A stretch of 64,000 nt of DNA from Candidatus Eiseniibacteriota bacterium (lineage in GTDB: Bacteria > Eisenbacteria > RBG-16-71-46 > JACRLI01), in assembly GCA_016235265.1 (NCBI GenBank), contig JACRLI010000015.1, positions 133,335 to 197,334 of the forward strand, in the 5' to 3' direction. Shown in pieces: positions 14,757-53,326 of the stretch. The first letter of the stretch is position 1; each line of letters opens with the position of its first letter. A program made the position numbers and the translations under genes. The notes beneath the pieces are model-generated. The model was not told where the DNA came from. It saw only the letters and a list, made by a program, of their open reading frames with translations, and made no database searches.

Positions 14757-14771
14757 GCAATCCACGTGCCA
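14757..14771 (-). promoter_or_regulatory. Sigma54 (RpoN) -24/-12 promoter for the flgB...fliN operon
   Basis: Minus strand reads TGGCAC-GTGGA-TTGC (exact consensus TGGCAC-N5-TTGC); predicted TSS about 14745, 19 nt upstream of the flgB GTG. Confidence 0.75.
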
Positions 14772-14819: not shown

Positions 14820-16231
<1,412 letters not shown>

Positions 16232-16235
<4 letters not shown>

Positions 16236-17380
16236 GCGTCCTCCGGAGGCAGGGACGGCAGGGTCAGGGTGAAGCAGGCCCCGTGCGGCTTCCGGTCCCG
16301 GTACGCGAGGGCGCCGCCGTGCGACTGCGCGGCCTTGGCGGCCAGCGCCAGGCCCAACCCGGTGCCGCGCGCCTTGCCGGTGATGAACGGTTCGAACATC
16401 CGGTCGCGCACGGCGGGATCCACGCCGGGGCCGGAGTCGGAAATCGTGAGCCGGTGCGCCTCGCCCGGGATCAGGGCCACCCGCACCCGGCCGCCCCGGG
16501 GCGAGGCTTCCACCGCGTTGCGAGCCACGTTGACCACGGCCGCCTGCAGGCGCGTCGCGTCCCCGCGGGTGAATGCGGCCCCCGGTCGCTTCCACACCAG
16601 GGCCACGCCGCGCTCGCGCGCCAGCGAACCGGTCTGCACCAGCGCGGATTCCACCACCGCGCGCAGGTCCACGGGGTCCTTGCGCGGCTCGAAGGGCCGC
16701 GTGAATTCCAGGAATTCGGAGACCAGGTCCTCCAGGGCGTGGATGCCGCAGCGGATCTTCTCCGCGTAGGCCCGGCGGGGGTCGGCCGGTTCCAGCCCGC
16801 GCTCCAGCAGGTCCAGGAAGCCGGACATGCCGCCCAGGGGGTTGCGAATCTCGTGTGCCGCCACCGCGGCCACCCGTCCCAGCGCCGCCAGCGAGCGGGC
16901 GCCCTCCAGCTCCTTGCGCAGCCGCACGTCCTCGGTGCGGTCGGTCAGGATCTCGACGGCCCCCAGCGGCTCGCCGCGCACGCCGCGCACCCAGGACACC
17001 TCGGAGTCGAGGTGACCGGAATCCGGTCCCAGGTCCAGCGCCTCGCTTCGGGGTCCGCCGGCGCGCAGGCGGTCCGCGGGCGAGGGGTGGCCGGGCCACA
17101 ACTCGGCGTACGCGTGCCCCCGCGCGGCCTCGCGGCCCACACCCAGCATGCGCTCCGCGGCGTGGTTCATGCTGCGCACGCGCCCGGAGGAGTCGCTCCA
17201 CACCAGGCCCAGCGGCAGGGACTCCATCACCCGGCCGACCCACAGGTGGAAGCCCTCGGACTCCTCGCGCACGCGACGCAACCGGTCGCGCAGCACGTAC
17301 AGTTCGGCCTCGTCCTGGGCAAGGCGCAGTTCCAGCTCCGCCTGCCCGGTCCAGTCGGTCCCCGGGTGCAGCACGGTCAT
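16232..17380 (-). CDS. PAS-domain sensor histidine kinase (HisKA plus HATPase_c)
   Basis: 382 aa from ATG at 17380 (ATGA overlap with upstream gene). H-box AAVAAHEIRNPLGGMSGFLDLL; G1/G2 boxes DSGPGVDPAVRDRMFEPFITGKARGTGLGLALA; cytoplasmic, no TM. Confidence 0.88.
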
Positions 17381-18504
17381 CGGGAGGTCATCCGCGCGGC
17401 CGAGCCCGCGCGAGCGCGGGCCTGGGCCGTCCAGTAGTCGTCCGGGTGGTGCGTCTCCAGCTCCTGCAGGCGGGCGGCGGCGGCCTGCGCCCGGCCCAGC
17501 CGCGTCTCGAGCTTGGCGCACTGGTGCAAGGACCAGGGTCGCTCGGGGGCCGCGGGATACGCGGCCATGGCCTCGACGTAGGCCGCGAGCGCGTCCTCCG
17601 GTCCGGCCAGGCGGTACTGGGCGTCGGCCCACTGGAAGTACGCGGTCCGCCGCGCGTCATCCTTCGATTCCGGGTCCGGAGTGATCTGCGTGGCGCGCCG
17701 GTACCAGCGCGCCGCCTCGTCGGTGCGCCCGGTGCGATCCAGCACCCGGCCCAGCAGCAGGTCCAGCGACACCGACTCGGCGCCCAGCTGCAGCGCCCGG
17801 CGGGCGTGACCTTCCACCCCATCCGGGGCGGCATGCAGCGCCCATTCCAGGAGGGCCAGCCGCGCGTACAGCGCCGCGGCCGAGTCCGCCGACAGGAACC
17901 TGGCGCAGCTGTCGAGCGCGGCGGCGGCCGCGACGGCGTCACCGCGCGCCAGGGCGGTGCGCACCGGTGCATCCGGGGCCCGGGAGGTGACCGTGCGGGT
18001 GTCGTGCGCGCGCCGGCCGGCGACCCCCGACTTCGGGGGCGGCGCGGGCGCGCGGATCGCGGCGGGGCCTGCGGAGCGACCGCGGGCGGTCGCGGGCGCG
18101 GCGCCGGACCGCGGGCCCGCGACGGATGAAGCCGGAGTTGCGGGCGCCGGCGCGGGCCCGCCGGCCAGCAGCAGCACGCCGGCCGAGTCCCTCCAGCTCA
18201 CCCAGTACGGCGCGCTCCGGGGCAGTTCCAGGATCAGGCGCGGGTGCGCGCCATCGAGGTCGCGCACCTGGGCCCGCCGCAGGCGATTCGCGCCCGGATC
18301 CGCCTCCACCTTCGCGTCGGCGGGAAAGTCCAGCACCACGCGTGGCGGGGAGCCCAGCTCCCAGACCTTCTGCGGACGCGGCCCGCGGAAGCGCAGCACC
18401 GCGTCCCCGCCGCCGGCCCGCGCCGACGGCGCCGGCCCGCACAGCGCCGCGGCGCACGCCAGCGCCAGCAGTGCGCGCCCCGCGCCCGGGGGCGGGTGGA
18501 TCAC
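17377..18504 (-). CDS. Secreted AMIN-like plus TPR-repeat protein
   Basis: 375 aa; signal peptide MIHPPPGAGRALLALACAAALCG; AMIN-like beta domain (RVVLDFPADAKVEADP...LILELP); C-terminal TPR/Sel1-like helical repeats; translationally coupled on both sides. Confidence 0.6.
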   Translation of the reverse strand: MIHPPPGAGRALLALACAAALCGPAPSARAGGGDAVLRFRGPRPQKVWELGSPPRVVLDFPADAKVEADPGANRLRRAQVRDLDGAHPRLILELPRSAPYWVSWRDSAGVLLLAGGPAPAPATPASSVAGPRSGAAPATARGRSAGPAAIRAPAPPPKSGVAGRRAHDTRTVTSRAPDAPVRTALARGDAVAAAAALDSCARFLSADSAAALYARLALLEWALHAAPDGVEGHARRALQLGAESVSLDLLLGRVLDRTGRTDEAARWYRRATQITPDPESKDDARRTAYFQWADAQYRLAGPEDALAAYVEAMAAYPAAPERPWSLHQCAKLETRLGRAQAAAARLQELETHHPDDYWTAQARARAGSAARMTSR

Positions 18505-18825: not shown

Positions 18826-19221
18826 CTAGGTACCGGTCCGCCGCAGGCCGTCCAGGTACTTCTGGGCGCACTGCTGGACCTGTTCCGAACTGAACGGTTT
18901 CACCAGGTAGTCCTCCGCCCCGGCCTGAAGGCTCTGGTTGCGCACCGGCTCGTCCTGCTCGCTGGTCAGCACCAGCACCGGCACGCCGGCGAAGGCGGCG
19001 GAGCCCCTCACCGCGCGCAGCAGCGAGAGACCGTCCATGTTGGGCATGTTGAGGTCGGTGAAGATGAGCGCCGTCTCCGGGTTCCGGGCCAGCTGTTCGA
19101 GGGCGTCGTGACCGTCCATCGCCTCGATCACCCGGCAACCGATCAGGCGCAGGCTGAACGCGATGAACTTGCGCGTGGTCGGGGAATCATCGACGACGAG
19201 AACCAGCTGGGACATGACCAC
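18826..19221 (-). CDS. CheY-like single-domain response regulator
   Basis: 131 aa; LVLVVDDSPTTRK...DLNMPNMDGL...LVKPF receiver-domain residues. Confidence 0.85.
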   Translation of the reverse strand: MVMSQLVLVVDDSPTTRKFIAFSLRLIGCRVIEAMDGHDALEQLARNPETALIFTDLNMPNMDGLSLLRAVRGSAAFAGVPVLVLTSEQDEPVRNQSLQAGAEDYLVKPFSSEQVQQCAQKYLDGLRRTGT

Positions 19222-19237: not shown

Positions 19238-20071
19238 CTAATCCTTGCGGTACCCGAGGCCTCGGCGAAAGGTGACCGGCCGGAACGCGCGGCTCACGCC
19301 GTGCAGCGATTCGGCCTTGCCCAGGAACAGGAACCCGCCGTCCCGCAGGCACTCGTAGAGCACCGCGGCGGCGCGCTTGCGCGAAGTCTCGGAGAAATAC
19401 ATCATCACGTTCCGGCAGAACACCGCGTCGGGCTCGGCCCGCTCCCCCGGCTCCAGCTCGAGCAGGTTCCCGGCCTCGAAGCTCACACCCTGCCTCCAGC
19501 GATCCCGCACCCGCAGCATGCCGGCGCGGTCCTCGAACAGCTGGGGCTTCACGGTTTCGGGCACGTCGCGCACCGCGGCGCCCCGGTATTCCCCGCGCCG
19601 GGCGTCGGCGACGCACCGCTCCGACAGGTCCCAACCCAGCACCTCCAGGCCCCGTTCCGACACCGCGTCGTCCTGCCCCAGCCGGTACCGCAGCGAGTAC
19701 GCCTCCTCGCCCGCCCCGCACCCCACGCTCCACACCCTCACCGGGCCTTCCCCGCCCAGCGGCGGGAGCACTTCCTCGACCAGCGCGTCCAGTTGTTCCG
19801 CCTCCCGGAAGAAGCCGCTCTCGTGGGGCGCGGCCAGGTCGCGAAGCTGGCGCAGTTCCTGCCCCGTCTCGTCGTACTTGAGTCTCAGCAGCAGGTCGTG
19901 GGCGCCCTGCGCGTCCACCGTCTTGAGCCGGCCCTGGAGCCGCTCCACCAGCAGCGGCAGCCGCGGGTCGGCGTAGTGCACGCCGGTGCTCTCGTGGATG
20001 AAGTCCCGCAGGGCCCCCCAGTCCTCGGGTGGCGCCACCAGGCGCTGCGGCGAGATCACCGGCACGAACAT
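19238..20071 (-). CDS. cheR: Chemotaxis protein methyltransferase CheR
   Basis: 277 aa; CheR N-terminal domain plus SAM-binding fold (VWSVGCGAGEEAYSL, CRNVMMYF). Confidence 0.88.
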   Translation of the reverse strand: MFVPVISPQRLVAPPEDWGALRDFIHESTGVHYADPRLPLLVERLQGRLKTVDAQGAHDLLLRLKYDETGQELRQLRDLAAPHESGFFREAEQLDALVEEVLPPLGGEGPVRVWSVGCGAGEEAYSLRYRLGQDDAVSERGLEVLGWDLSERCVADARRGEYRGAAVRDVPETVKPQLFEDRAGMLRVRDRWRQGVSFEAGNLLELEPGERAEPDAVFCRNVMMYFSETSRKRAAAVLYECLRDGGFLFLGKAESLHGVSRAFRPVTFRRGLGYRKD

Positions 20072-20437
20072 CTAGCCCGGCTCCCGGGCCAGCGCCTGCC
20101 GCACCCCCTCCACCAGCAGTTCCACGCGGAAGGGCTTCAGGAAGCACTGCACCGCGCCCGCCCCCATGACCTGGCGGACCAGCGCCGGGGTGCCGTGCGC
20201 GGTGATGGCGATCGCGGGCACGGCGCGCTTGCGCCGCGCCAGCCTGCGAATCAGGTTCACGCCCCCCAGGCCGGGCAGCCGCAGGTCGGCGATCACCAGG
20301 TCGCACGGCTCGCGCCGCAGCACCCGCAGGGCCTGTTCCGCGGAAGTCACGGTCACGGCCGCGAATCCCTCCTCCCCGAGCCGCTCCGCCAGGGCCCAGG
20401 CCGTGGCGCGCTCGTCCTCGACGATCAGAACTCTCAG
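20072..20437 (-). CDS. Response-regulator receiver-domain protein (start uncertain, possibly CTG)
   Basis: The conserved LRVLIVEDE...DLVIADLRLPGLGG...LKPF receiver fold begins about 80 nt upstream of the first canonical start (GTG at 20356). The in-frame stop is at 20501-20503. No ATG/GTG/TTG lies in the leader. Confidence 0.6.
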   Translation of the reverse strand: MRVLIVEDERATAWALAERLGEEGFAAVTVTSAEQALRVLRREPCDLVIADLRLPGLGGVNLIRRLARRKRAVPAIAITAHGTPALVRQVMGAGAVQCFLKPFRVELLVEGVRQALAREPG

Positions 20438-20505: not shown

Positions 20506-20520
20506 GCAATGCCTGTGCCA
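20506..20520 (-). promoter_or_regulatory. Sigma54 -24/-12 promoter upstream of the receiver-cheR-cheY-sigma_r4-AMIN/TPR-HK-RR operon
   Basis: Minus strand reads TGGCAC-AGGCA-TTGC; the in-frame stop of the receiver ORF lies just downstream, so this is the leader. Confidence 0.7.
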
Positions 20521-20666: not shown

Positions 20667-22053
<1,387 letters not shown>

Positions 22054-22079
<26 letters not shown>

Positions 22080-23580
22080 GGCGCTTCTCCAGGGGCAGCT
22101 CGAGGGTGATGGTGGTGCCCCGGCCGGGGGTGCTCTCGGCGGAGATGCTGCCGCCGTGCTCGTGAATGATGGACTGGCAGATCGCGAGGCCCAGCCCGGT
22201 CCCCGTGGCGCGGGTGGTGAAGAACGGGTCGAACAGGCGCGGCAGGTGCTCGGCCAGGATCCCCTCGCCGGTGTCCGACACCCGCAGGCGCACCACCGGG
22301 CGCGCCGCCGCCGGCGGACCCTGCGGCAGCAGGCTGTCCTCGGCGCGCCGCCCGCCGGTGCGGCGGATGAACGGCGGGCTCTCCGCGAGGCGCGCATCCA
22401 GCGTGAGCTTGCCGCCGCGGGGCATGGCCTCGAGGGCGTTGCGGAACACGTTGAGCAACACCTGGATGAGCTGGTCGCCGTCGGCGAACACCTCGGGCAG
22501 CGGATCCTGTTCCTGGAACTCGATCACCACGCCCTGCCGGCCGGCGGCGTCGGCCACCAGTGCGAGCGCCTTGCGCGCGCAGTCCGGCAGCGAGACGCGC
22601 CGCAGCGTGAGGGTCCAGGGGCGCGCGTAGTCTAGCAACCCTGAAACGATCCTGTCCAGCCGGTTGACCTCGTCCTGGATCACGTCCAGGAAGCGACGGC
22701 GGTCGTCGCCCTCCTCCAGCCGGTTGCGCAGCACCTGCGCGCTGGTCGCGATGCCCGCGAGGGGATTGCGGATCTCGTGCGCCACGCCCGCGGAGAGCTC
22801 GCCCAGCACCGCCAGGCGGTCGCGCCGGCGCGCCTGTTCCTGCGCGCGGCGCTCCTGGCTGCGGTCGGAGATCACCACCGCGTGGCCCGCACCGCGGCCC
22901 AGCGGAACCGCGCGCAGCACCAGCGCCAGGCTGTGTCCGGTGGGGTGCGGCGCGCGCACCTCGAGGGCCACCCCCGGCGCCAGGGGCCATGGGAACCCGG
23001 CGTCCTGGCCCAGGGCCGCCGCGAGCGGGAGCCCCACGAGGCCGGCCGCCGGCACGCCCAGGATGTGAGCCGCCGAATCGCTGGCCGCGGTGACCGCGCC
23101 GTCGCCGGCCACCGTGAGCAGACCCTCCTCCAGCAGCGCGCCCGCCACGGCCCAGGCGTGCGCGCGCCGCGCGGCGTCCCACGTCTCGAACGCCGACCGC
23201 GCGGCGGACGCGGCCACCCGCCGGAGCGCGGCGCGCCGGCCGGGCGGCAGCGCGGCCCGCACGCGCACCAGCAGCACGCACGCGCGCCACGGGTCCGAGG
23301 GCCGATGCAGTGGGAACGGGGAGCCGGAGCCGGGGACCGTCTCCGCCAGGGCGGCGCGCAGCGCGCGGCGGCCGGCGGCGTCCAGGCGGCGGTGCGCCAG
23401 CGCGGGCGCCAGGCCGGGAAGGCGCCACGCCACGCCGAATGCGGTGACCCCGCGTTCTCGGGCCAGCAGATCCATGACAGGTTCGAAGAGTCGGGCCGGG
23501 GCGGGGACGGGGATCGGGACGGCGCTGCGGGCGCTGCGGGAGGCTCGGGGCTTCGGGACGGACGGACGGCGTTCGGTCAC
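22054..23580 (-). CDS. Sensor histidine kinase (cytoplasmic, N-terminal sensing region plus HisKA/HATPase_c)
   Basis: 508 aa; H-box LSAGVAHEIRNPLAGI; N/G boxes LLNVFRNALEAM...DTGEGI...GTGLGLAI; overlaps the RR start by 26 nt; N-terminal start uncertain. Confidence 0.85.
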
Positions 23581-23602: not shown

Positions 23603-25621
23603 CTAGGGGAAGGAACTGGCCAGGTCGACCACCTCCCGCCACTCCGGGCGTTCGGCGCGGACGCGGTCGAGCGCGGCGCGCACTTCTTCGCCGCCCATCC
23701 GGCCCAGCGCGGTGATGGCCGCGCGCACGAGGTCCTCTTCGGGGCGCTCCAGCAGCGCGACCAACGGCCGCACCGCCTCCTGCACCCCCAGGGAGCCCAG
23801 CCCCCCCGCGGCCGCCACGGTCACCACCGTGGCGGGATCGCCCAGCGCGCGGACCAGCAGGTCGGGCACGCCCGGGTGGCCGCTCCCCGCGAGGGTGTTC
23901 ACGAGATGGTAGCGGACCCACGGATCCGGATCCTCCAGCATGCCCGTGAGCTGGGGGAACACCGCGTTCATGTCAATCGCCGCCAGGGCCTGCAGCGCCG
24001 ACTGGCGCACCCCGGCAGCCGGATCGCGCAGCACCGGGAGCAGCGGCTCCAGCGCCCGCGGGTCGCGCAGCCGCGCCAGGGAGACGGCCGCCGACTGGCG
24101 GACCATCTCGTCGCCGTGGTGCAGCGCCTCGAGCAGCGGCTCCAGCACCGCCTCGTCCCCGATGAAACCCAGCGCGGACACCGCGAGGCGGCGGCGCTCG
24201 GGGTCGGGGTGGTGCAGGTCCTCGTTCAGGCTGCGCACCACGTCGTCGCCGGAGAGCAGCACCAGCGCCCCGAGCGCGGACTCTCGCACCTCGGGCGCTT
24301 CATCGTCAAGCCGGGCGCGGAGCGCCGCGGCCGCCTCCGGAACCCGGAGCCAGCCCAGGGCGCGCGCGGCGCAGGCGCGCACCGCGGGGATGGGATCGGC
24401 CAGCAGCGCCACCAGCGGGGCGCCGTCGCCATCCCGGCCGCACTGGCCCAGCGCCAGCGCCGCGGCGGCGCGCAGCCGTTCGTCGTCGGAGGACAGCAGC
24501 TCGGACATGGCCTCCACCACCCGCGGGTCGGAGTGCGAAGCCAGCATCTCCAGGGCCAGGCAGCGGGCGGCCACGCCGGCTTCGCGCGCCACGCGCACCA
24601 GGTGCGGCACCACGTCGTCGGGGGTGCGCTCCAGCGCGCGCCGGGCCTGGTTGCGGATCTCCTCCACGGGGTCCTCCAGCCGCGCCGCCAGCACGGCGGT
24701 GACCGCCGTCGAGGGCGGGCACAGGGCCAGCACGCGGAGCGCCGCGAGGCGGATGTCCCACTCCTCGCACCCGGAGGCGTCCACCAGGTCGGGGACCATG
24801 AAGTCCAGGGAGCCGTCGGCGGCCTCGCCCACCGGGCCCTTCTCGAGCAGCCGGCTCACGGCGCGGATGATGGCGTGGCGCAGCGGCGCCGGCGCCCCCC
24901 GGTAGCCCGACATCAGCGGGCGCAGGGTGTCCGGCGAGCCCACCTGGCCCAGCGCGTTGGCCGCGGCGAAGCGCACCATCAGGTCGTCGTGGTCCAGGGA
25001 TTCCAGCAGCAGCGGCACGGCGCGCGGGTCCCCCTGGCGGCCGAGTGCCTCGGCCAGGGCGCAGCGCAGTTCGGGCCGCTCGCGGAATACGTCCATCAGG
25101 TGGGTGGCCACCTCGGCGCCGCGGAACTTGCCCAGCGACTCGGCGGCCGCGAAGGCCACGTTGGGGTCGGGGTCGCGCAGCCCGTGCACCAGCGTGGCGG
25201 CGGCCCGCGGGTCGCGCACCTCGCCCATCAGCTCGAGCGCGAACTTCCGCGTGCTGGGCTCGGCCGCGGCGGCCGCGCCCACCAGCACGCCCACCGCGTG
25301 CTCACCCAGGCCGGCCAGCGCGGAGCCCGCGCGGTTGCGCAGGCCCAGGTCGTTGGATCCCAGCAGCCCGCCCAGCGCGGCGGCGGTGTCCTGGCCCCCG
25401 CGCATGCGCAGCGCCTCGGCGGCGGTCTCCCGCACGCTCTGGCGCGGATCGGAGAGCAGGCCCACCAGCGCCGGCACCGCGCGGGAATCCCGGCACAGGC
25501 CCAGCCGCGACGCGGCGCGCCGGCGCACCCGGTCCTCGGGGCTCCCGGCCTCGGCCAGGAGCTGCTCGATGTCCGGGCCCGAACCGGCGATCACGCCGGG
25601 GATGTCCCTGCCCGGGGTCAC
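23603..25621 (-). CDS. HEAT-repeat (PBS-lyase type) protein, 672 aa
   Basis: At least 14 tandem repeats of about 31 aa of the form L..LL.D.D..VR..AA.ALG; begins 3 nt after the STAS gene stop. Confidence 0.8.
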   Translation of the reverse strand: MTPGRDIPGVIAGSGPDIEQLLAEAGSPEDRVRRRAASRLGLCRDSRAVPALVGLLSDPRQSVRETAAEALRMRGGQDTAAALGGLLGSNDLGLRNRAGSALAGLGEHAVGVLVGAAAAAEPSTRKFALELMGEVRDPRAAATLVHGLRDPDPNVAFAAAESLGKFRGAEVATHLMDVFRERPELRCALAEALGRQGDPRAVPLLLESLDHDDLMVRFAAANALGQVGSPDTLRPLMSGYRGAPAPLRHAIIRAVSRLLEKGPVGEAADGSLDFMVPDLVDASGCEEWDIRLAALRVLALCPPSTAVTAVLAARLEDPVEEIRNQARRALERTPDDVVPHLVRVAREAGVAARCLALEMLASHSDPRVVEAMSELLSSDDERLRAAAALALGQCGRDGDGAPLVALLADPIPAVRACAARALGWLRVPEAAAALRARLDDEAPEVRESALGALVLLSGDDVVRSLNEDLHHPDPERRRLAVSALGFIGDEAVLEPLLEALHHGDEMVRQSAAVSLARLRDPRALEPLLPVLRDPAAGVRQSALQALAAIDMNAVFPQLTGMLEDPDPWVRYHLVNTLAGSGHPGVPDLLVRALGDPATVVTVAAAGGLGSLGVQEAVRPLVALLERPEEDLVRAAITALGRMGGEEVRAALDRVRAERPEWREVVDLASSFP

Positions 25622-25623
25622 GT

Positions 25624-25944
25624 TCAGGCCGCCTGGTCCATGGACCGGTGCATGCCGAAGACGTGCGAAAGCTGGGTCAGCTCGAACACTTCCTGCACCT
25701 GCGGCTGCAGCGAGAGCAGGCGCAGCGTGGCGCGCCGCTCCCGGCAGCGCTTGAGGCAGGTGATGAGCGAGGCCAGCCCCGCGCTGTTGACGAACGGCAC
25801 CGCCCGCAGGTCGATGGCCACGTGGAGCCCGGACTGCGCCAGCGCGGAGATCTCCTCCACGAGGAGGTTGCCGGCCTCGCCGTCCAGGCGTCCCGAGACC
25901 TCCAGGACGACTCCGTTGGGCACTTGCGATTTCTTCAGTGTCAT
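25624..25944 (-). CDS. STAS-domain anti-sigma-factor antagonist (RsbV/SpoIIAA-like)
   Basis: 106 aa from ATG at 25944 (AAGGAG RBS). ...DLRAVPFVNSAGLASLITCLKR... has the conserved phosphorylatable Ser context of SpoIIAA-family proteins. Confidence 0.8.
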   Translation of the reverse strand: MTLKKSQVPNGVVLEVSGRLDGEAGNLLVEEISALAQSGLHVAIDLRAVPFVNSAGLASLITCLKRCRERRATLRLLSLQPQVQEVFELTQLSHVFGMHRSMDQAA

Positions 25945-25975
25945 CTCCCGCTCCTTGGGGTTTCGGGGTTGCCGG

Positions 25976-26443
25976 TCACCCGGCCTTGCGCATTTCCATT
26001 GCGCCGGGGCGCGTCTTCCACATCCGGACCCGGTTTTCACCCGGGCCGCGGACCACCTCCACGTTGTCCATCAGCCGCAGCATCAACGCCACCCCGCGCC
26101 CCCCCTCCAGCATCTCGCGGTTGCGTTCGGTGACGGACTGCAGGCGGCCCACGTCGAAGCCGTTCCCGCGATCCACCACGTCGAACCACACGCCGTCCTC
26201 GACGTCGCTCACCACCAGCTCCACGGTGCGGTCGGCCCGCCGGCTGTTGCCGTGCGTGATGGCGTTGTGCATCGCCTCGTTGACCGCCAGGTCGATCCGG
26301 AAGGTGTCCCTCCGGCTCCACCCGCTGGCGCGGAGGAATGTCCGCAGACCGTGGCTCACCCACGGCAGCATGGCCGGGTCGCTGGGCAGTTCCACCCGGA
26401 ACCAGTGTTGCGCCGCTCCCAGGCGGCCGGCGTCGCGGTTCAC
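25976..26443 (-). CDS. Anti-sigma regulatory factor / serine protein kinase (RsbW/SpoIIAB-like HATPase_c)
   Basis: About 155 aa from GTG at 26443 (GTGA overlap with the phosphatase stop). N-box AVNEAMHNAITHG, G-box VVDRGNGFD, GRGVALM motif. Confidence 0.75.
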   Translation of the reverse strand: MNRDAGRLGAAQHWFRVELPSDPAMLPWVSHGLRTFLRASGWSRRDTFRIDLAVNEAMHNAITHGNSRRADRTVELVVSDVEDGVWFDVVDRGNGFDVGRLQSVTERNREMLEGGRGVALMLRLMDNVEVVRGPGENRVRMWKTRPGAMEMRKAG

Positions 26444-27726
26444 TCCGCCCTCCCCACCAGCACGGTCAGGTCGTCCGAGACGCCCCCGGGCCCCGCGTAC
26501 AGCCGGACCTCCTCCACGATGCGCGCGGCCAGCTCCTTCACCGGCAGCCCGCGCGCGGCGCGCACGGTGGCCAGCAGCCGTTCCATCCCGAAGAGCGAGT
26601 CGTCGGGGCCGTGCGCCTCGGTCACCCCGTCGGTGTAGAACACCAGGAGATCGTCCGGCGCCAGCGTCACCTCGCCGGCCACGTAGGTCATCTCCGGGAA
26701 CTGGCCCAGCACGCCGCCCCGGGCGGTGAGCCAGGCCGGCTCGCCCTCGCGCGGCAGCCACAGCGCCGGGCAGTGCCCCGCGTTGGCGTAGCGAAAGGTC
26801 CGCGTGGCGGCTTCGTACAGCCCGTAGAAGAGCGTCACGAACACGGATGCGTAGCGCTCGGTGTCCTCGCACAGCGCCAGGTTGACGCCGCGCACCGCGC
26901 CCGCCGGGTCCGAGTGCAGCGCCGCCTCGCGGCGCACCAGGCTTCTCGTGGCCACCATGAACAGCGCCGCGGGCACGCCCTTGTCGGAGACGTCCGCCAC
27001 CACCACCCCCGCCGCGCCCCCCGGGCCGCGCACGAAATCGAAGTAGTCGCCCCCCACCTTGCCCATCGGGAAGTACGCGGTGGCCCAGCGGATGCCGGTG
27101 CCCTCCGGCTCGCGGCCGGGCAGCAGCGCCATCTGGACCTGCCGGGCGATGCCCAGCTCCCGCTCGAGCGCCTGCTTCTCGAGGTCCACCTGGTGCAGCC
27201 GGGCGTTCTCGATGGCCACGGTGGCCAGGCCCGCCAGCGCGCCCAGGCTGTCTGCGGCCGCGGCATCCAGGCCCTCGTAGGCCAGGTTGGCGATCACCAG
27301 CGCGCCGAGGGCGTGACCCTTGTGCCGCAGCGGAACCGCGACCAGCGACTCCAGGCTCACGCCCTGCGGCACGCTCTGGAAGCGCGGGTCGTGCAGGCAA
27401 TCCGGCGACCAGACCATCTCCCCGGTCCGCGTGACGCACTCGGGAACGGTCTCGCCTCCCTGGAGCCGCAGTTGCTCCAGCACGTCCCCTTCCAGGCCCC
27501 ATGCCACCCGCGCGTGCGGGGTCTCGGCCTCCAGCCACAGGCAGCCCACTTCGGCGCCCGCCATGTGCAGGGCCGCGTCCATCAGGGTGCTGAGGATCTG
27601 GTCCCGGTCGAAGGTGGAGGTGAGCAGCGCGGCCACATCCGTGAGTTCCCGGATGCGCGCCAGGCCCAGCTCCAGCTCCGCGCGGTCGTCCACGGCCGGC
27701 GCGGCCACCTTGATCGCCTGGAGCAC
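26440..27726 (-). CDS. GAF-domain PP2C-type serine phosphatase (RsbU/SpoIIE-like)
   Basis: 428 aa; N-terminal GAF; C-terminal PP2C/SpoIIE domain with metal-binding GGDYFDF...VADVSDKGVPAALFM...YTDGVTE. Confidence 0.85.
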   Translation of the reverse strand: MLQAIKVAAPAVDDRAELELGLARIRELTDVAALLTSTFDRDQILSTLMDAALHMAGAEVGCLWLEAETPHARVAWGLEGDVLEQLRLQGGETVPECVTRTGEMVWSPDCLHDPRFQSVPQGVSLESLVAVPLRHKGHALGALVIANLAYEGLDAAAADSLGALAGLATVAIENARLHQVDLEKQALERELGIARQVQMALLPGREPEGTGIRWATAYFPMGKVGGDYFDFVRGPGGAAGVVVADVSDKGVPAALFMVATRSLVRREAALHSDPAGAVRGVNLALCEDTERYASVFVTLFYGLYEAATRTFRYANAGHCPALWLPREGEPAWLTARGGVLGQFPEMTYVAGEVTLAPDDLLVFYTDGVTEAHGPDDSLFGMERLLATVRAARGLPVKELAARIVEEVRLYAGPGGVSDDLTVLVGRAE

Positions 27727-27748
27727 CGGCGCCCTCCCCCGCGGGCCG

Positions 27749-28612
27749 TCAGGCGGCCTGCGGGACCTCCGCGTCCGGCGTGCCCATCACTTCCTCCGCC
27801 TGCTTCCATTCCTTCTGGAACTCGACGGCCAGGTCCGCCGCGCGCTCGAAGGGCACGGTGGCCGCCTGCCACAGCGTGGCGTCCACGTCCGCCGCGGCCC
27901 GGCCCGCGTCCAGCGCGTGGGCCAGGGAATCCGCCAGCGCCACCAGGTGCACCAGCGGTTGGTGCTGCGCGTCCGCAGCGGCGGGTGAGTGGTGGTGAGT
28001 GATGGCCGCCACGATGACGTCGGGGAGCTTCCACTTGGTCGCCAGCCATCCACCCACCTCGCCATGCGAGGCACCCAGGAACTCCCGCTCGGCGTCGGAC
28101 GCGGAGTTCTGCCGCTCCTTCGCCGACGCCAGGGCCTCCTCGTATTCGACCGTGGCCACCACGTCGAGCACCAGCTTGCCCAGGTCGTGGACCAGGCCCG
28201 CGGACATCGCGGCTTCGCTGTCGCGGCCCACCGCGCGGGCCAGCACCCGGCCGCCCACGCCCACACCCAGCGAGTGCCGCCAGAACTCCTGGGGCTGGAA
28301 CGTCTTCGCCCCCGCGCCCGCGATCATGCGGTGCACGGAGGCGGACAGGGCCAGGCTGCGGATGGTGTTGAAGCCGAGCACCAGGGCGCACTGGGGCAGC
28401 GAGACCATCCCGTTGCGGCGGCCGAAGTACGCGGAGTTGGCCAGGCGCAGCATCCGGGCGGCGAGCGCCGGCTCCTGGCTGATCAGCTCGTTGAGCCGCG
28501 ACACGGAGGACTTGGGGTCGTCCACCGCCGCGATGATCTTGGTGACCACCACGGGGAGCGACGGCAGATTGGGAGTGCGCTCCACCTTCTGCTGGAGTTC
28601 GGCGAGTAGCAT
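27749..28612 (-). CDS. HDOD-domain signalling protein
   Basis: 287 aa; HDOD family (IIAAVDDPKSSVSRLNELISQEPALAARMLRLANSAYFG...LVHDLGKLVL...ITHHH). Confidence 0.8.
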   Translation of the reverse strand: MLLAELQQKVERTPNLPSLPVVVTKIIAAVDDPKSSVSRLNELISQEPALAARMLRLANSAYFGRRNGMVSLPQCALVLGFNTIRSLALSASVHRMIAGAGAKTFQPQEFWRHSLGVGVGGRVLARAVGRDSEAAMSAGLVHDLGKLVLDVVATVEYEEALASAKERQNSASDAEREFLGASHGEVGGWLATKWKLPDVIVAAITHHHSPAAADAQHQPLVHLVALADSLAHALDAGRAAADVDATLWQAATVPFERAADLAVEFQKEWKQAEEVMGTPDAEVPQAA

Positions 28613-29104: not shown

Positions 29105-29431
29105 TCAGGCGCTGCGCCGGCGCACGGGGTCTTTTCCCGCGTACCGGGAAGCGCATCGCTCCTGCATCTCCAGCGATTCCAGCTCGCGGGCCACCCGGTC
29201 CTGCTCCGTCACCACGGCGCGGTGGCAGAGCGCGAGCATCCGGGTGGCCGCCTCGGCCCAGCGCCTCGGCTCCGGGGCCGGGGCGCCGGCCGCGCGGAGG
29301 GCCCGGACGTGCTCATCGCACTCGGCGCCCGCCCGCGCGGCGGCCTGGAAGTCCATGCTCCGGAGAGCGGACCTCAGGCGCCGGGCGGAATCAAACAGTT
29401 CACGGGCCGGGTGGCGGGAAGTCTCAGGCAA
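29105..29431 (-). CDS. Hypothetical helical protein between flaG and flgM
   Basis: 108-aa ORF (MDFQAAARAGAECDEHVRALRAAG...), predicted helical. It sits where a chaperone-type gene is often found, but no family was recognised. Confidence 0.4.
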   Translation of the reverse strand: MPETSRHPARELFDSARRLRSALRSMDFQAAARAGAECDEHVRALRAAGAPAPEPRRWAEAATRMLALCHRAVVTEQDRVARELESLEMQERCASRYAGKDPVRRRSA

Positions 29432-31596: not shown

Positions 31597-31628
31597 AGGG
31601 GGCCTCGCTGCGTTGGTGTTGCTTCCGT

Positions 31629-31728
31629 TGATCCCGGGACCTCATCCCGGGTCTCTCATCCCCGGTTTCCCTTCCCCGGGCTTCCCATCCCGGGTCCGTG
31701 ATTCCGGGTTTCCGGCGGTCCCGGCGGG
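31629..31728. repeat. Seven tandem imperfect 13-15 bp repeats with CCCGGG/CCCCGG cores in the fliC-fliS intergenic region
   Basis: Read directly: TGATCCCGGGACC / TCATCCCGGGTCT / CTCATCCCCGGTTTCC / CTTCCCCGGGCTTCC / CATCCCGGGTCCG / TGATTCCGGGTTTCC / GGCGGTCCCGGCGGG. Confidence 0.8.
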
Positions 31729-31803
31729 GGCCCTTCGGCCCCCGCCGGGCGCACGGATTCGTCACGGGATCCTCAAAGAAGGGATCCCAGGCCCGGTCCC
31801 GGC

Positions 31804-32784: not shown

Positions 32785-32812
32785 TTTTCGGCATTACTCG
32801 CAGGAACTTTAG
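32785..32812 (-). promoter_or_regulatory. Sigma28 (FliA) promoter for fliC
   Basis: Minus strand reads TAAAGTT-N-GCCGAAAA with an exact 15-nt spacer between TAAA and GCCGAAAA (consensus TAAA-N15-GCCGATAA); about 140 nt upstream of the fliC ATG. Confidence 0.75.
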
Positions 32813-32937: not shown

Positions 32938-35829
32938 TCAGGCGGCTGCCCGCCCGGCCAGCGAGGGATCCGCGGCCAGGGCGCGCTCGTACGCCCCGGC
33001 GGCTTCGTCCTCGCGCCCCGCGGCCAGCAGCGCCAGGGCGTACTGCGACAGCAGCTGCGCGTCCGAAGCGTGCTGGGGCGTGAGCCTCTCGAACACCTTG
33101 AGACTCTCCGCCACGCGCCCCGCTTCCCGCAGCGCCACCGCACGCAGGAACTCGGTGTGCGGGTCGCCGCTGTCCTCGCGGAAGAGCTCCTCGAGCAATT
33201 CCAGCGCCTCGCCGGGCAGGTGGGCCCGGATCCGGGCGGCCGCCACGCGCGTGCGCAGTTCCCGCGGCGCCCCGACCACGCCCAGCGCGGCCAGCTCCAG
33301 GTCCCGCCCCTCGCGTTCCATCTGCTCGGCGATCCGCAGCGTGCACTGCCACGCGTTGTGCCGCGCGGGCTGAAGACCCGGGTCCAGCGACAGGGCGCGG
33401 TCGAAGGACTGCAGGGCCTCGCCGTAGCGTCCCGACTGGTACAGGGCGTTGCCCAGGTTGTAGCGGGCCAGCGCGGACTCCGGCTGCAGTTCCGCCGCGC
33501 GCATGTATTCGCGCACGGCCTCCCCGAAGCGGCCCAGGTAGTAGAGGCAGTTTCCGTGGTCCAGGCGCAGCGGGCCCTCGTCCAGGCTCTCCTCGCATGC
33601 CAGGCCCTGTCCCGAGGCCAGCAGCCTCCCCAGCAACTCCGCCGCGACCTGGTAGTCGCGCCCCATGAACTCGATGCCCGCGCGCAGGTAGGTCACCAGC
33701 GCGCTGTTCGGGCGGGCGGCCTCGGCCTCGTCCAGGTGGGAGCGGGCGGTCTCCCGGTTGCCCTCCGCGAGCGCGATCTGCGCCAGCTTGACGTGCGCCA
33801 GCGACAGGGCCTCGGGCGGCAGCGAGCGCCCGTGCAGCGAGGCCTCCAGCGGGATCACCGCGTCGGCGTTGCGTCCCAGCGCGAAGAGGGTCACGCCCAG
33901 ATGGAACAACAGGAACCGGTCCCCCGGACGTTCCGCGATCTCCCGGTGCAGCAGTCTCAGGTTGCGCTCCTGCTTGACGCGCAGCGTCTGCGCGTCCAGG
34001 CCGTAACCCGCGTGCAGGATGCGGATGTTGCTCCGCGCCAGCCGCGCCCCCCCCCGCACCAGCGAGGGAAGCACCTGCTCGTGCACCCGGCCCTCGAAGG
34101 CCACGCCCGGGAGCTTGCGGAACACGCGGCAGTAATGGTGGGACACCCCGCTCACCGCCTCGCCGTCGCGCATGCGGTTGGCGATCACCACCTCGGCCGC
34201 GTCCCAGCGCCCGCCGCGGAGCAGGGCCCGGAGTTCGTCCACGGAATCGGGGTCCAGCTCCTCGTCCGCATCCAGCACCAGCACCCACGGGCCCCGGGCG
34301 TGGGACAGCGCCAGGTTGCGCGGCGCGGAGAAGTCATCGTCCCAGGTGGTCGTGATCACCGCGGCGCCCATCGCGCGGGCCAGGTCGGGCGTGCCGTCCA
34401 CCGAGCCGGTGTCCACGACCACGATCTCATCAGCCACGCCGCGCACGCTGGCCAGCGCGCGCTCCAGCGAAGGCCGCGCGTCCCGCACGATCATGCACAC
34501 GCTCAGGTCCGCCCCGGTGACGCGGCTGCCGGAGACCAGCTCATCCTCGTCCATGGTCTCCTGCAACCGCAGCAGCTCGGCGTTTCCCGGCACGTGGGCC
34601 GCGCCCGACGCCAGCGCGGCGCGCGCCTCGTGGGGCCGGCCCAGCCCCATCAGCACGCGGGCCAGGGCCAGGTGCCCTTCGGGCAGGTGCGGTGTGAGCC
34701 GGGTGGCCTTCTCCAGGTGGGCCCGGGCGCTCTCCAGCTCCCCGGCCACCTCATCCAGCGACGCCAACTCCAGCAGCGCCTCCGCGGAGTTGGGCTGCAG
34801 GCGCAGCGCCGCCTCCAGGTGGGCGCGGGCGCGCGCCGGGTAGCCGCGGATCCGCTCGCACAGGGCCAGCTGCACGCGCACGTGCACCGGCTCGGCGTGG
34901 AAGTCCATCACCGCGTCGCTGGGCGGGGGCGGGGATTCCAGCAGCGAGGTCAGGATTTCCGCCGCGCGGGTGGGGTCGCCCGAGCGGCGGGCGGCCTCCG
35001 CCCGCAGCAACATCCCGCACTGCGTCCGGTCGTCCTCGCCGATCGCCTCCAGGGCCTCGGCGTTTCGCCCCGTCTCCAGGGCGCAGATGCACAGGTTCCA
35101 GTGCGCCTGCTGCAGGAACTCCGCTGGCAGCGGCGCCTCGAGCAGCCTGCGGAACAGGCCCCGGGCGCGCTCGTACTCGCCCATTGCCATCAGCGCGTTG
35201 GCGAGGTTGCGTTGCACCATGGGATCGTCGGAGCGCAGCCGCGCCTCCTCCTCCACGATGGCCAGGTTCCGCGCGCGGCGGGCCGGCTCGCGCTGCGGGT
35301 CGGCGTAACCGAGGTGGCGGATCACCACCGGGACGCGCTGGGCCGCCGCCGCCAGGGGCCCGTCCGGCCCGATCACCTGCTCGTGGAGCGCTCCCTCGAA
35401 GCGCACTCCCGGGAGGCGGCGGAAGACGCGGGGATAGTAGTGGGACAGCCACACTCCGGAATGGCGGTGCCGGGCCTCGCTCTCGATCCGCAGGCACATC
35501 GCCGGGAGGTACTCATCGGCATTTTCCAGGAACCGGCGCAGCCGCGCGCCGTTGAAGAAGTCGATGCGCTCGTCGGCGTCCAGGTACAGCACCCAGTCCC
35601 CGGTCGCCTGCGCCAGCGACGCGTTCCGTGCGGCGGCGAAATCGCCGGTCCACGCGAACCCGGACACCCGCGCGCCGGCGTCCCTCGCGATCTGCGCGGT
35701 GCGGTCGGTGGAGCCGGTGTCCACGACGATCATCTCGTCCACGAACTCGGAGGCCATCGCGAGGCACTCGCGCATGTGGACCTCCTCGTTCTTGACGATC
35801 ATGCACAGCGAAAGCCGGACCTCGGGCAC
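32938..35829 (-). CDS. Tandem-duplicated GT2 glycosyltransferase-TPR protein (two GT2 plus TPR modules), 963 aa
   Basis: Two copies of the family-2 glycosyltransferase DxD core (LSLCMIVKNEE...VVDTGSTDRT...LYLDADE and LSVCMIVRDARP...VVDTGSVDGT...LVLDADE), each followed by TPR repeats. Confidence 0.8.
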   Translation of the reverse strand: MPEVRLSLCMIVKNEEVHMRECLAMASEFVDEMIVVDTGSTDRTAQIARDAGARVSGFAWTGDFAAARNASLAQATGDWVLYLDADERIDFFNGARLRRFLENADEYLPAMCLRIESEARHRHSGVWLSHYYPRVFRRLPGVRFEGALHEQVIGPDGPLAAAAQRVPVVIRHLGYADPQREPARRARNLAIVEEEARLRSDDPMVQRNLANALMAMGEYERARGLFRRLLEAPLPAEFLQQAHWNLCICALETGRNAEALEAIGEDDRTQCGMLLRAEAARRSGDPTRAAEILTSLLESPPPPSDAVMDFHAEPVHVRVQLALCERIRGYPARARAHLEAALRLQPNSAEALLELASLDEVAGELESARAHLEKATRLTPHLPEGHLALARVLMGLGRPHEARAALASGAAHVPGNAELLRLQETMDEDELVSGSRVTGADLSVCMIVRDARPSLERALASVRGVADEIVVVDTGSVDGTPDLARAMGAAVITTTWDDDFSAPRNLALSHARGPWVLVLDADEELDPDSVDELRALLRGGRWDAAEVVIANRMRDGEAVSGVSHHYCRVFRKLPGVAFEGRVHEQVLPSLVRGGARLARSNIRILHAGYGLDAQTLRVKQERNLRLLHREIAERPGDRFLLFHLGVTLFALGRNADAVIPLEASLHGRSLPPEALSLAHVKLAQIALAEGNRETARSHLDEAEAARPNSALVTYLRAGIEFMGRDYQVAAELLGRLLASGQGLACEESLDEGPLRLDHGNCLYYLGRFGEAVREYMRAAELQPESALARYNLGNALYQSGRYGEALQSFDRALSLDPGLQPARHNAWQCTLRIAEQMEREGRDLELAALGVVGAPRELRTRVAAARIRAHLPGEALELLEELFREDSGDPHTEFLRAVALREAGRVAESLKVFERLTPQHASDAQLLSQYALALLAAGREDEAAGAYERALAADPSLAGRAAA

Positions 35830-35859
35830 GGTGTTCCTCCTCGATGCGCGCGGCGGCCG

Positions 35860-36657
35860 CTACGCCGCCCGCTGCGCCGTCTCCAGCCGCCGGAGCAGGC
35901 TGGGCAGCAGCGCCAGCTCCGGGTTGCGCCATTTCTGCTGGAACAGGGCGCGGTTGCGTTCGATCAACGCCATGTAGTCCACGCCCTCGGCGCGGAATGT
36001 GGCGCTGCCCTCGTGGTGCACGAAGCAGCTTTCCACCACCAGGCACTTCAGGCCCAGCAGGCGGGTCCTCAGGCAGTAGTCGTCGTCCTCGAAGTTGCCG
36101 ATCCCGAAGCGCTCGTCCCATTCGCCCACGGCGTCGGCCGTCTCCCGGGTGAAGGCGAGGCAGAAACCCACCAATCGCTCCACCTCGCGCACCGCGCCGA
36201 AGCGCGTGGCGGCCAGGGTGCGGGCCACGCCGTCGGGCCCGCCGCTGCGCGCGTAGTCCACCGGGACGCACTGCGCACCGGAGCAGTTGTTGGTGAGCGG
36301 GCCCGCCAGCCCCGCGCCGGGCAACGCCAGCGCCTCGTGCAGCTCCTCCAGCCAGCCCGGAGTGACCTGCACGTCGCTGTTGAGCAGCACCAGCGTCCCG
36401 CCGCGGGAAGCGTCCACCAGCTGGTTGACGGCAGCCGCGAAGCCGCGGTTCCCGGGATTCACGATCAGGCGCACGTCGCGGCCGGCGAGGTCCTCGCGCA
36501 CGTCCGCGCGGGAGCCGTTGTCCACGATCACGATCTCGTGGGGCTGCCGGGTGTGGCGGCCGATGCTCTCGAGAGCCAGCCGCAGCAGCGGCAGCTGGTT
36601 CCATACCGGCACCAGGATGGACGTGAGCCGGGGTTCGATTCCGCGTTCAACCGGCAA
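35860..36657 (-). CDS. GT2-family glycosyltransferase (probable TTG start overlapping upstream stop)
   Basis: About 265 aa; TSILVPVWNQ...IVIVDNGS...LNSDV...FGIGNFEDDDYCLR family-2 GT motifs. Confidence 0.7.
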   Translation of the reverse strand: MPVERGIEPRLTSILVPVWNQLPLLRLALESIGRHTRQPHEIVIVDNGSRADVREDLAGRDVRLIVNPGNRGFAAAVNQLVDASRGGTLVLLNSDVQVTPGWLEELHEALALPGAGLAGPLTNNCSGAQCVPVDYARSGGPDGVARTLAATRFGAVREVERLVGFCLAFTRETADAVGEWDERFGIGNFEDDDYCLRTRLLGLKCLVVESCFVHHEGSATFRAEGVDYMALIERNRALFQQKWRNPELALLPSLLRRLETAQRAA

Positions 36658-44103: not shown

Positions 44104-44161
44104 GGCTCCTCGCGCGGAAATGGAAGACGGATGGCCGGGCGGGCCGGACATCCTGCGGAGA

Positions 44162-44176
44162 GCAACCGATGTGCCA
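44162..44176 (-). promoter_or_regulatory. Sigma54 -24/-12 promoter for the glycosyltransferase island
   Basis: Minus strand reads TGGCAC-ATCGG-TTGCT (exact consensus), about 58 nt upstream of the 44103 ATG. Confidence 0.75.
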
Positions 44177-44313
44177 TGCGGGAAGGCAATCGAAGCGAGG
44201 GGCTATCTTACGGAATGCCTTGAGGAAGCGCCGGGGCCGGGAAATGGCCACCGGGCGGAACGGAAAAGGGCGCCGGCGGATAAGCCACCGGGCGCCCAGA
44301 ATCTGGCCGAGGA

Positions 44314-53261: not shown

Positions 53262-53311
53262 GACGTTCACCTCCGCGGCGGCCGGATAGACCTGTCCGGC
53301 AGCCGGAATCG

Positions 53312-53326
53312 CAACGGACGTGCCAC
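53312..53326 (-). promoter_or_regulatory. Sigma54 -24/-12 promoter for flgF-flgG-flgA-flgH-flgI-flgJ
   Basis: Minus strand reads TGGCAC-GTCCG-TTGC (exact consensus), about 50 nt upstream of the flgF start. Confidence 0.72.

Follow-up and report, generated by a model that had tools for sequence, protein, structure and literature searches.

Partner switches tied to motility or chemotaxis are already known, as are HDOD proteins linked to motility and HEAT proteins that bind CheY. In the canonical rsbV-rsbW-sigB and spoIIAA-AB-sigF modules, a sigma gene is linked to the switch. In Pseudomonas aeruginosa, according to PMC8256260, the unphosphorylated STAS protein PA3347/HsbA binds FlgM. The same paper describes Bordetella BtrU/BtrV/BtrW as controlling the type III secretion apparatus, which is related to flagellar export, and names RbaV and HmpV as further partner-switch STAS precedents with non-sigma outputs linked to motility or chemotaxis. 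Ancestral F7 chemotaxis (che) clusters at stages 1 and 2 carry STAS and serine phosphatase genes (PMC7184735), and the CrsR/CrsA partner switch of Shewanella is encoded in che1 (PMC9855816). Here we analyze a five-gene block in a 64,000-nt stretch of DNA (the window) from Candidatus Eiseniibacteriota bacterium (assembly GCA_016235265.1, contig JACRLI010000015.1, positions 133,335 to 197,334 of the forward strand). The block encodes an HDOD protein, a GAF-PP2C phosphatase, an RsbW-like kinase, a STAS protein, and a HEAT-repeat protein within a flagellar supercluster. The central trio of phosphatase, kinase, and STAS protein is very likely a genuine motility-linked partner switch. Our main explanation, which we hold at close to an even call, is that this RsbU/RsbW/RsbV-type switch works within the motility regulon, with the STAS protein as its output and FlgM as its preferred target.

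The sequence-only reading of this DNA had proposed an RsbU/RsbW/RsbV-type trio among five co-directional genes. Pfam searches matched every domain and coordinate on the minus strand (Table 1), including the PP2C, HATPase_c, and STAS calls, and the catalytic motifs of the trio are intact. The PP2C stop and the RsbW start overlap as GTGA, just as had been read. The junction between the STAS and HEAT genes is also tight, although the spacer is 2 nt (TGA, 2 nt, GTG) rather than the 3 nt originally given. Gaps of 22 nt separate HDOD from PP2C and HEAT from the following histidine kinase (HK) gene, and 109 nt separate the flgM stop from the HDOD ATG. In an alignment of phosphatases, PP2C residues D227, D230, D245, D366, D418, and D419 occupy invariant columns. 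The kinase finds its best PDB match in RsbW 6M36, and its best solved-structure and NCBIfam matches are RsbW and SpoIIAB; its N box (NEAxxNAxxHGN), G1 (DxGxG), and G2 (GGRG) motifs are kept across the clade, with a score far under the NCBIfam RsbW/SpoIIAB equivalog cutoffs (40 vs 145 bits). The STAS protein aligns with RsbV, TM1442, and SpoIIAA, such that Ser54 in F-V-N-S-A-G-L matches the Ser of RsbV DSTGL, which we take to be the phospho-acceptor Ser56, and that of TM1442 DSAGL. Ser54 is invariant in 9/9 aligned orthologs; N53-S54 and the T-Q-L motif are invariant in the clade. From these features, kinase activity, phosphatase activity, and ligand input are predicted for the trio. The stand-alone GAF-PP2C had been singled out as a distinguishing trait. 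It does lack a receiver (REC) domain, but GAF-SpoIIE proteins of ~425 aa are very common (2480 matches). The absence of a sigmaB-like gene from the block stands: a non-exhaustive scan found no full-length σ70-family gene among the window open reading frames (ORFs), in the Pfam tables of the related loci L001, L002, L005, L009, and L170, or among the labelled ORFs of other loci.

Compared with HptB-HsbR(PA3346)-HsbA, the locus has the same combination of PP2C, RsbW-type kinase, and STAS protein, a link to motility, and no dedicated sigma gene; in some Zixibacteria, the PP2C and kinase are even fused, as in HsbR. Unlike HsbR, the window phosphatase takes its input through GAF rather than REC, the kinase is a separate gene, and the lineages are unrelated. 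No Hpt domain was found in Pfam scans of the window ORFs. The Hsb pathway also differs in that the window has HEAT, HDOD, che genes, and a σ54 two-component system in the same block, and FlgM binding here would be an analogy. The likeness to F7 and Che1 lies in Zixibacteria, in which the module is contiguous with cheY-cheR-cheZ-cheA-cheB, whereas the window keeps only CheR and two CheY-like genes, without CheA, CheW, CheB, or a methyl-accepting chemotaxis protein (MCP). CrsR is a REC-PP2C-kinase fusion controlling RpoS, and the F7 and Che1 systems have no GAF, HEAT, σ54 two-component system, or flagellar structural genes alongside. As a partner switch with a predicted non-sigma output, the locus also resembles SypE/SypA and Btr; however, SypE is an RsbW-REC-PP2C protein, the Syp and Btr outputs are biofilm polysaccharide or an injectisome and not flagella, and neither has HEAT or HDOD partners.

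To place the block, relatives were collected with a metagenome scan for the clade STAS motif E[VIL]F[ED][ILV]TQL. This unsaturated scan gave 295 pattern matches, 172 relatives, and 80 loci; taxon labels of loci in metagenome-assembled genomes (MAGs) are those of the depositors. A genome scan with a GAF-PP2C alignment was saturated by paralogs and had no Eisenbacteria genome among the matches listed, but it gave a few Zixibacteria and Ignavibacteriales-labelled loci. A STAS profile search yielded 816 protein clusters (90% identity) with E ≤ 1e-12; among the matches listed, every phylum-level name is Zixibacteria, and a few are named only "bacterium." The complete five-gene order recurs in two other Eisenbacteria-type contigs, L001 (GCA_035542815.1) and L002 (a Logan assembly), at 56–72% identity, and it is therefore no chance juxtaposition. 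Both loci read HDOD–GAF-PP2C–kinase–STAS–HEAT–HK–σ54 response regulator (RR), and L001 adds RR–RR–σ4-only downstream. The L001 contig (DATKKS010000184.1; 9.8 kb, 75% G+C) is labelled Candidatus Saccharimonadales, yet its proteins are 59–82% identical to those of the window in identical gene order; it clearly belongs to this lineage and is probably Eisenbacteria DNA that was mis-binned.

At 36–38% identity, the next-best phosphatases again head a PP2C–RsbW–STAS series followed by response regulators, an HK, and a σ54 activator. These trios come from Zixibacteria (L005, L010, L011, and L025, with L005 being 92% identical to a named Zixibacteria MAG), from Ignavibacteriales-labelled MAGs (L018 and L020), and from L009. 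Best phosphatase matches among the Eisenbacteria, Zixibacteria, and L009 modules are mostly reciprocal, and the STAS proteins of the clade bear the signature F-[VI]-N-S-x-G-L … E-[IV]-F-[ED]-x-T-Q-L. By these comparisons, the STAS/PP2C trio is assigned to one orthologous clade over Eisenbacteria, Zixibacteria, Ignavibacteriales-labelled MAGs, and L009. Within the 80-locus set, RsbW or a fused PP2C–RsbW lies directly upstream of STAS at all loci with room (62/62), PP2C lies upstream at 34/35, and the housekeeping pair DUF512–der is found at 24/25. Directly after STAS, 31/60 loci encode a HEAT protein of 636–711 aa, whereas 27/60 encode a receiver protein there. The fused (GAF-)PP2C–RsbW-like kinases, seen in L020 (9836–11713) and L170 (8248–9972), are 574–625 aa long and recall HsbR/CrsR logic without a receiver domain.

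Two arrangements follow the trio. Type A, drawn from Pfam on L123 and the gene table of L170 (a named 4.46-Mb Zixibacteria contig), reads DUF512–Der–[GAF-]PP2C–RsbW (sometimes fused)–STAS–HEAT–RR–RR–CheR–RR–RR–CheZ–CheA–CheB–PAS-HK–σ54 RR; type A loci stop at the σ54 activator because the flank is 10 kb. Type B lacks HEAT and che genes and reads STAS–RR–HK–σ54 RR–motA–motB–flgB–flgC–fliF–fliG (L092, L119, L138, L156, and L159), and motAB-flgBC-fliFG lies downstream in 5/6 HEAT-less loci with sufficient sequence. The refuting case named in the sequence-only reading, a module without linkage to motility genes, is thus mostly not borne out, as che or flagellar genes also lie beside the trio in distant relatives; L009, L020, and L150 show no flagellar gene in the 5–8 kb available. 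By gene order and similarity, window positions 14.8–27.7 kb are collinear with the type A block, and the Eisenbacteria arrangement is therefore the same island with lineage-specific changes: flgM replaces der upstream, the trio has gained an HDOD gene ahead of it, HEAT is followed by an additional HK–σ54 RR pair, and a σ28-region-4-only protein and a TPR protein stand in place of CheZ–CheA–CheB. The RR after CheR in L123 is 50% identical to window RRb, which likewise follows CheR. Of the two HK/σ54-activator pairs in the window (HK1 with RR1 and HK2 with RR2), the second is the better counterpart of the pair in relatives with respect to the activator: the σ54 RRs of L018 and L005 score 376 and 429 bits to RR2 versus 326 and 337 to RR1. 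The kinase assignment is weaker because the L005 HK slightly prefers HK1 (141 vs 132 bits to HK2), whereas the L018 HK gives 155 bits to HK2 versus 121 to HK1.

L009 departs from both arrangements. Its post-STAS slot (10138–11169) encodes a 343-aa protein with hydrophobic, apparent transmembrane segments, followed by a short HK (257 aa); HDOD lies upstream of PP2C, and no flagellar gene occurs within 8 kb. The 343-aa protein was considered as a divergent HEAT protein and rejected, as it gives no HEAT match and has putative transmembrane segments and a charged, Glu/Lys/Gln-rich C-terminal tail.

Promoter motifs connect the trio of the relatives to the flagellar hierarchy. In 24/37 loci (22 distinct instances), the PP2C start is preceded at a distance of 10–25 nt by the motif T[CA]AA-N14–16-[GT][CT]CGA[TAC][AT], compared with a shuffle expectation of 0.17 on average and 3 at most (1000 shuffles). 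It sits in otherwise unalignable der–PP2C spacers, and in several more loci the −10 element is paired with a variant −35. Because the motif fits the σ28 consensus TAAA-N15-GCCGATAA, we assign the operon of the relatives, by inference, to their σ28 (late flagellar/chemotaxis) regulon. A second σ28-like motif, TAAA-N15-GCCGATA, occurs inside rsbW in 25 loci (within L095–L165, ~190 nt before the stop) and was rejected as a coding artefact because it reflects the conserved G1-box peptide xN-x5-ADIxD, which counsels caution in motif-based promoter calls. In the window, σ28-type promoters precede fliC, fliW, and flgN, and perfect σ54 promoters are found at four places (Table 1). A σ54-like site also lies between motB and flgB in 3 Zixibacteria loci.

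These observations allow a mechanism to be proposed. The RsbW-like kinase would phosphorylate the STAS protein on Ser54, and the GAF-PP2C would dephosphorylate it once GAF senses a cytoplasmic ligand, with the phosphorylation state of the STAS protein setting its choice of binding partner. Because no sigma gene accompanies the trio in loci with labelled neighbours, the STAS protein most likely carries the output on a non-sigma target; RsbW sequestering a dedicated sigma factor is less likely. By analogy with the HsbA model, unphosphorylated STAS would bind FlgM and free σ28, and this binding would tune late flagellar and chemotaxis gene expression. FlgM/σ28 would be the most likely target in Eisenbacteria, although that assignment, taken by itself, is somewhat doubtful.

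The presence of FlgM beside the block, as claimed in the sequence-only reading, is supported by a Pfam score above threshold (28.8 bits vs a cutoff of 25) and by an ortholog at the same position in L002, in which the module is preceded by fliS–fliD–flaG–orf–flgM; the NCBIfam equivalog score falls below its cutoff (28.6 vs 40.75). The position of flgM after fliS-fliD-flaG is typical. Insertion of the module directly after flgM is correct for the window and L002 but proves lineage-specific, since the Zixibacteria trio stands behind DUF512-der instead. A small ORF of ~83–108 aa with no family match lies between flaG and flgM and is conserved in both loci (window 29105–29431, minus strand; L002 2544–2852). 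Two candidates in this neighbourhood were rejected. An intergenic hairpin between flgM and HDOD is no more stable than shuffled sequences (z = 0.10) and was discarded as an attenuator, and a 100-aa ORF upstream of HDOD in L009 has no Pfam or BLAST support as FlgM.

Several observations weigh against FlgM as the target and against σ28 control in the window. Adjacency to flgM represents one evolutionary event, in Eisenbacteria; the Zixibacteria trio follows der, with no flgM within 10 kb. The gene fliA was not found in the window. In the window, neither a σ28-type nor a σ54-type promoter was found immediately in front of flgM, HDOD, or PP2C, such that σ28 membership there would require transcription reading through from fliC or a promoter that escaped recognition. 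The neighbours common to every lineage are the RR, HK, and σ54 activator and not flgM, and a two-component target therefore fits equally. Finally, in L009, L020, and L150, the trio is accompanied by HK-σ54 RR but by no flagellar gene within the 5–8 kb available.

The HEAT protein had been presented as coupled to the STAS gene, with no described role in such systems, but it is no orphan accessory of the switch: its nearest relatives are in che clusters, its presence tracks CheR, and ~45% of trio loci are without it. The window protein is NblB-like at 160 bits, under the NCBIfam equivalog cutoff. The three best-scoring non-ortholog HEAT relatives with context examined are all in che clusters (3/3), with the arrangements CheW–HEAT–CheR–CheB (L003/L004), CheY–CheA–CheW–MCP–HEAT, and MCP–CheW–HEAT–CheR. 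HEAT and CheR occur together in 12 loci and are both missing from 8; HEAT alone is found in 2 and CheR alone in 0. In the window, 3.5 kb separate HEAT from CheR and two RRs farther downstream. The che-cluster context and the tracking of CheR indicate that the protein belongs to a chemotaxis-cluster HEAT family. A separate clade of STAS-linked HEAT proteins is not resolvable, with the window protein scoring 220 bits to the L018 HEAT and 218 bits to a che-cluster HEAT; repeats dominate such scores, and no finer statement of orthology is made for that reason. HEAT proteins of this kind have been described in two systems. Cpc7 (Che7) of Myxococcus xanthus is a HEAT protein that binds CheY7 (PMC11514114), and OE2401F (HEAT_PBS) of Halobacterium, on which motor switching depends, interacts with CheY, CheD, CheC2, and Fla proteins (PMC2666748). 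Like these, the window protein is an all-HEAT, CpcE/NblB-like solenoid, and its relatives lie beside CheW, CheR, CheY, or MCP genes. Unlike the window protein, neither Cpc7 nor OE2401F is described with a STAS or partner-switch gene as its neighbour, and repeat similarity prevents an orthology call. In the proposed mechanism, the HEAT protein would be a chemotaxis-cluster scaffold, probably docking CheY-like regulators, that was inherited jointly with CheR and CheY-like genes.

The HEAT data bear directly on an unlikely alternative, in which the switch feeds a chemosensory branch: the STAS protein would dock on HEAT according to its phosphorylation state, HEAT would bind CheY-like proteins or CheR, and the output would be on the motor or chemotaxis and not on transcription. 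Juxtaposition argues for it, as a HEAT gene encoding 636–711 aa adjoins STAS in 40/40 HEAT-containing loci, with 18–53 nt as the upper bound from the STAS stop to the first aligned HEAT residue; in the window the two genes are 2 nt apart, and a CheY-like gene overlaps the HEAT end in L018 and L170. The che-cluster neighbours of the HEAT relatives (CheW, CheR, or MCP) and the CheY binding of Cpc7 (PMC11514114) and of the haloarchaeal HEAT_PBS protein, with its further partners CheD, CheC2, and Fla proteins (PMC2666748), point the same way. However, HEAT is no universal target, as 27/60 loci have the trio without it; it tracks CheR rather than the switch, and the window has no CheA, CheW, CheB, CheZ, or MCP genes. 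Quite improbable in our estimation is an action of the switch on the neighbouring HK/σ54 activator, and hence on σ54-dependent basal-body genes, in the manner of Vibrio fischeri syp. RR-HK-σ54 RR is the sole neighbourhood found in all lineages (Eisenbacteria, Zixibacteria types A and B, L009, L018, and L020), and perfect σ54 promoters lie before flgB, flgF, and the RR-CheR operon in the window; the syp locus likewise has SypE/SypA alongside SypF (an HK) and SypG (a σ54 activator). Yet we know of no documented STAS or RsbW protein that acts directly on a σ54 activator, and SypA reportedly acts at a step after syp transcription. The conserved order may also reflect only a conserved regulatory island, and the σ28-type promoter puts the trio late in the hierarchy, after σ54-dependent genes.

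An equally improbable possibility is classical anti-sigma control, with the RsbW-like kinase sequestering a sigma factor encoded elsewhere (σ28 or group-3) and unphosphorylated STAS releasing it. The closest structural and NCBIfam matches of the kinase, the passing of the anti-sigma-antagonist superfamily model by the STAS protein, and the control of unlinked RpoS by che-cluster-encoded CrsR/CrsA (PMC9855816) are consistent with this idea, against which stand the kinase score far under the equivalog cutoffs and the lack of an adjacent sigma gene at any examined locus. That the linkage has no functional meaning, the trio being a general stress or second-messenger switch merely lying among motility genes, is very improbable. 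GAF-SpoIIE phosphatases are extremely abundant and often orphan, and the available flanks of L009, L020, and L150 hold no flagellar gene; nevertheless, the che/σ54-regulator/flagellar synteny is kept across lineages with only 30–40% protein identity, and the σ28-type promoter is conserved within otherwise unalignable intergenic DNA. A broader proposal, to which we also assign a low likelihood, is that the STAS protein and the che-cluster HEAT protein form a phosphorylation-gated complex coupling Ser/Thr partner switching to His-Asp chemosensory signalling through CheY-like proteins and CheR. Such a complex would constitute an unrecognised, widely conserved layer of flagellar control in Zixibacteria and Eisenbacteria, into which Eisenbacteria would have wired a metal-binding HDOD sensor and FlgM.

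The HDOD protein differs in distribution from the trio. Its membership in the operon, as had been read, is supported by the Eisenbacteria gene order, but adjacency is limited to Eisenbacteria and one other lineage; besides the window, HDOD lies upstream of PP2C only in L001, L002, and L009. Solved relatives include Cj0248 (1VQR) and the di-iron protein 3HC1. When the window protein is aligned to 3HC1, whose metal coordination is described in PMC12075610, H113, H142-D143, H183, and H206-H207 are kept. The protein would be an Eisenbacteria-specific accessory, possibly a metal-dependent sensor. Loss of the HDOD proteins Xanthomonas GsmR, Campylobacter Cj0248, or Pseudomonas SadB alters motility or flagellar synthesis (PMC11004494; PMC12075610). 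The window HDOD, unlike these three, is paired with a partner switch. GsmR, described as an HDOD-containing response regulator, is a REC fusion, whereas the window HDOD is stand-alone; SadB is a YbaK-HDOD fusion without most metal ligands, whereas the window HDOD keeps the conserved His/Asp positions.

A literature search found no paper on this conserved architecture. The combination that appears undescribed joins a GAF input and a kinase, either separate or fused, to a tightly coupled che-type HEAT gene, a σ54 two-component system, and flagellar operons, with a σ28-type promoter in front. The architecture is abundant in Zixibacteria, and the Eisenbacteria version adds flgM and HDOD. Little is understood of partner switches whose output is not a sigma factor, and what HEAT proteins do in chemosensory clusters has hardly been explored. 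For the target of the switch, the family supplies concrete, testable candidates in FlgM, the HEAT protein, the HK/σ54 activator pair, and CheY-like regulators. It also affords an initial picture of the organisation of flagellar regulation in two phyla without cultured members. Should the link to FlgM or HEAT be true, HsbA-type logic reaches beyond Pseudomonas, yet no new principle is established.

Table 1. Genes and promoter motifs of the regulatory block and its surroundings, in window coordinates
Feature	Position	Strand	Evidence or remark
Perfect σ54 promoter	14757–14771	-	before flgB-flgC-fliF...
σ54-dependent RR2	14820–16229	-	directly upstream of flgB; Pfam
HK2, PAS histidine kinase	16232–17632	-	Pfam PAS_4, HisKA, HATPase_c; probable counterpart of the Zixibacteria-block HK
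σ70-region-4-only protein, 104 aa	18501–18815	-	
RRb, CheY-like single-domain RR	18826–19221	-	top NCBIfam match CheY, 78.9 bits
CheR-type methyltransferase	19238–20071	-	Pfam CheR 140.5 bits; 33% identity to Zixibacteria che-block CheR
RRa, single-domain RR	20072–20356	-	Pfam Response_reg 68 bits; 75% identity to L001 RR1
Perfect σ54 promoter, TGGCAC-N5-TTGC	20506–20520	-	0 mismatches; intergenic, before RR-CheR-RR-sigma4 operon
σ54-dependent RR1, REC-AAA+-HTH_8	20667–22109	-	Pfam Sigma54_activat 213 bits; 82% identity to L001
HK1, HisKA + HATPase_c histidine kinase	22054–23580	-	Pfam; 71% identity to L001 HK; Eisenbacteria-specific pair with σ54 RR1
All-HEAT (CpcE/NblB-like) solenoid protein, 672 aa	23603–25621	-	Pfam HEAT_2 329.5 bits, 9 stretches, whole protein covered
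STAS protein, anti-sigma-antagonist-like, 106 aa	25624–25944	-	Pfam STAS 62.5 bits; TIGR00377 64.8 bits vs cutoff 53.45
RsbW/SpoIIAB-type serine kinase, 155 aa	25976–26443	-	Pfam HATPase_c_2 87 bits
GAF-PP2C (SpoIIE/RsbU-type) phosphatase, 428 aa	26440–27726	-	Pfam SpoIIE 161.8 bits, GAF_2 54.5 bits
HDOD protein, 287 aa	27749–28612	-	Pfam HDOD 193 bits, HD 38 bits
flgM (anti-σ28), 106 aa	28722–29042	-	likely ATG at 29042, preceded by Shine-Dalgarno-like GGGAGAG
σ28-type flagellin promoter	32785–32811	-	TAAAGTTCCTGCGAGTAATGCCGAAAA, 1 mismatch to TAAA-N15-GCCGATAA; nearest recognisable σ28 promoter upstream of the module
Perfect σ54 promoter	44162–44176	-	before a glycosyltransferase gene
Perfect σ54 promoter	53311–53325	-	before flgF

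The window has a G+C content of ~72%, and its minus strand carries nearly all real genes. Rfam and tRNA scans gave no matches. In Pfam scans, the flagellar supercluster spans fliN (36) to flgF (~53.6 kb). Its first part comprises fliN, fliM, fliL, motBA, flbD, flgE, flgD, fliJ, fliI, fliH, fliG, fliF, flgC, and flgB; the regulatory block follows, then flgM, flaG, fliD, fliS, and fliC. Beyond fliC lie three large glycosyltransferase-TPR genes and then fliW, flgK, flgN, flgJ-like, flgI, flgA, flgG, and flgF.

The σ70-region-4-only protein, correctly placed in the same block by the sequence-only reading, is kept in L001. Its top solved-structure matches are region 4 of WhiG and FliA (σ28 family), and it has an LVLxLYYxEEL-type motif; it could serve as a FlgM decoy or as a competitor at σ28 −35 elements. 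A second, larger SpoIIE/PP2C phosphatase, which spans up to 788 aa and matches GAF in part, is encoded divergently beside flgF at the cluster edge (53475–55841, plus strand) and could provide the same STAS protein with a second phosphatase input. The three glycosyltransferase-TPR proteins between fliC and fliW (32938–35859, 36647–39622, and 41503–44202, minus strand) are 900–990 aa long, and together they resemble a glycosylation island for flagellin that falls under flagellar regulation. After the flagellin stop, at ~31600–31800 on the minus strand, a strong GC hairpin (GCCCGGCGGGGGCC-GAAG-GGCCCCCGCCGGG) is followed by GGA-containing repeats (CCCGGGAT / GGGAAG ...) before fliS; given that fliW is present in the cluster, this region could be a CsrA-type binding leader before fliS.

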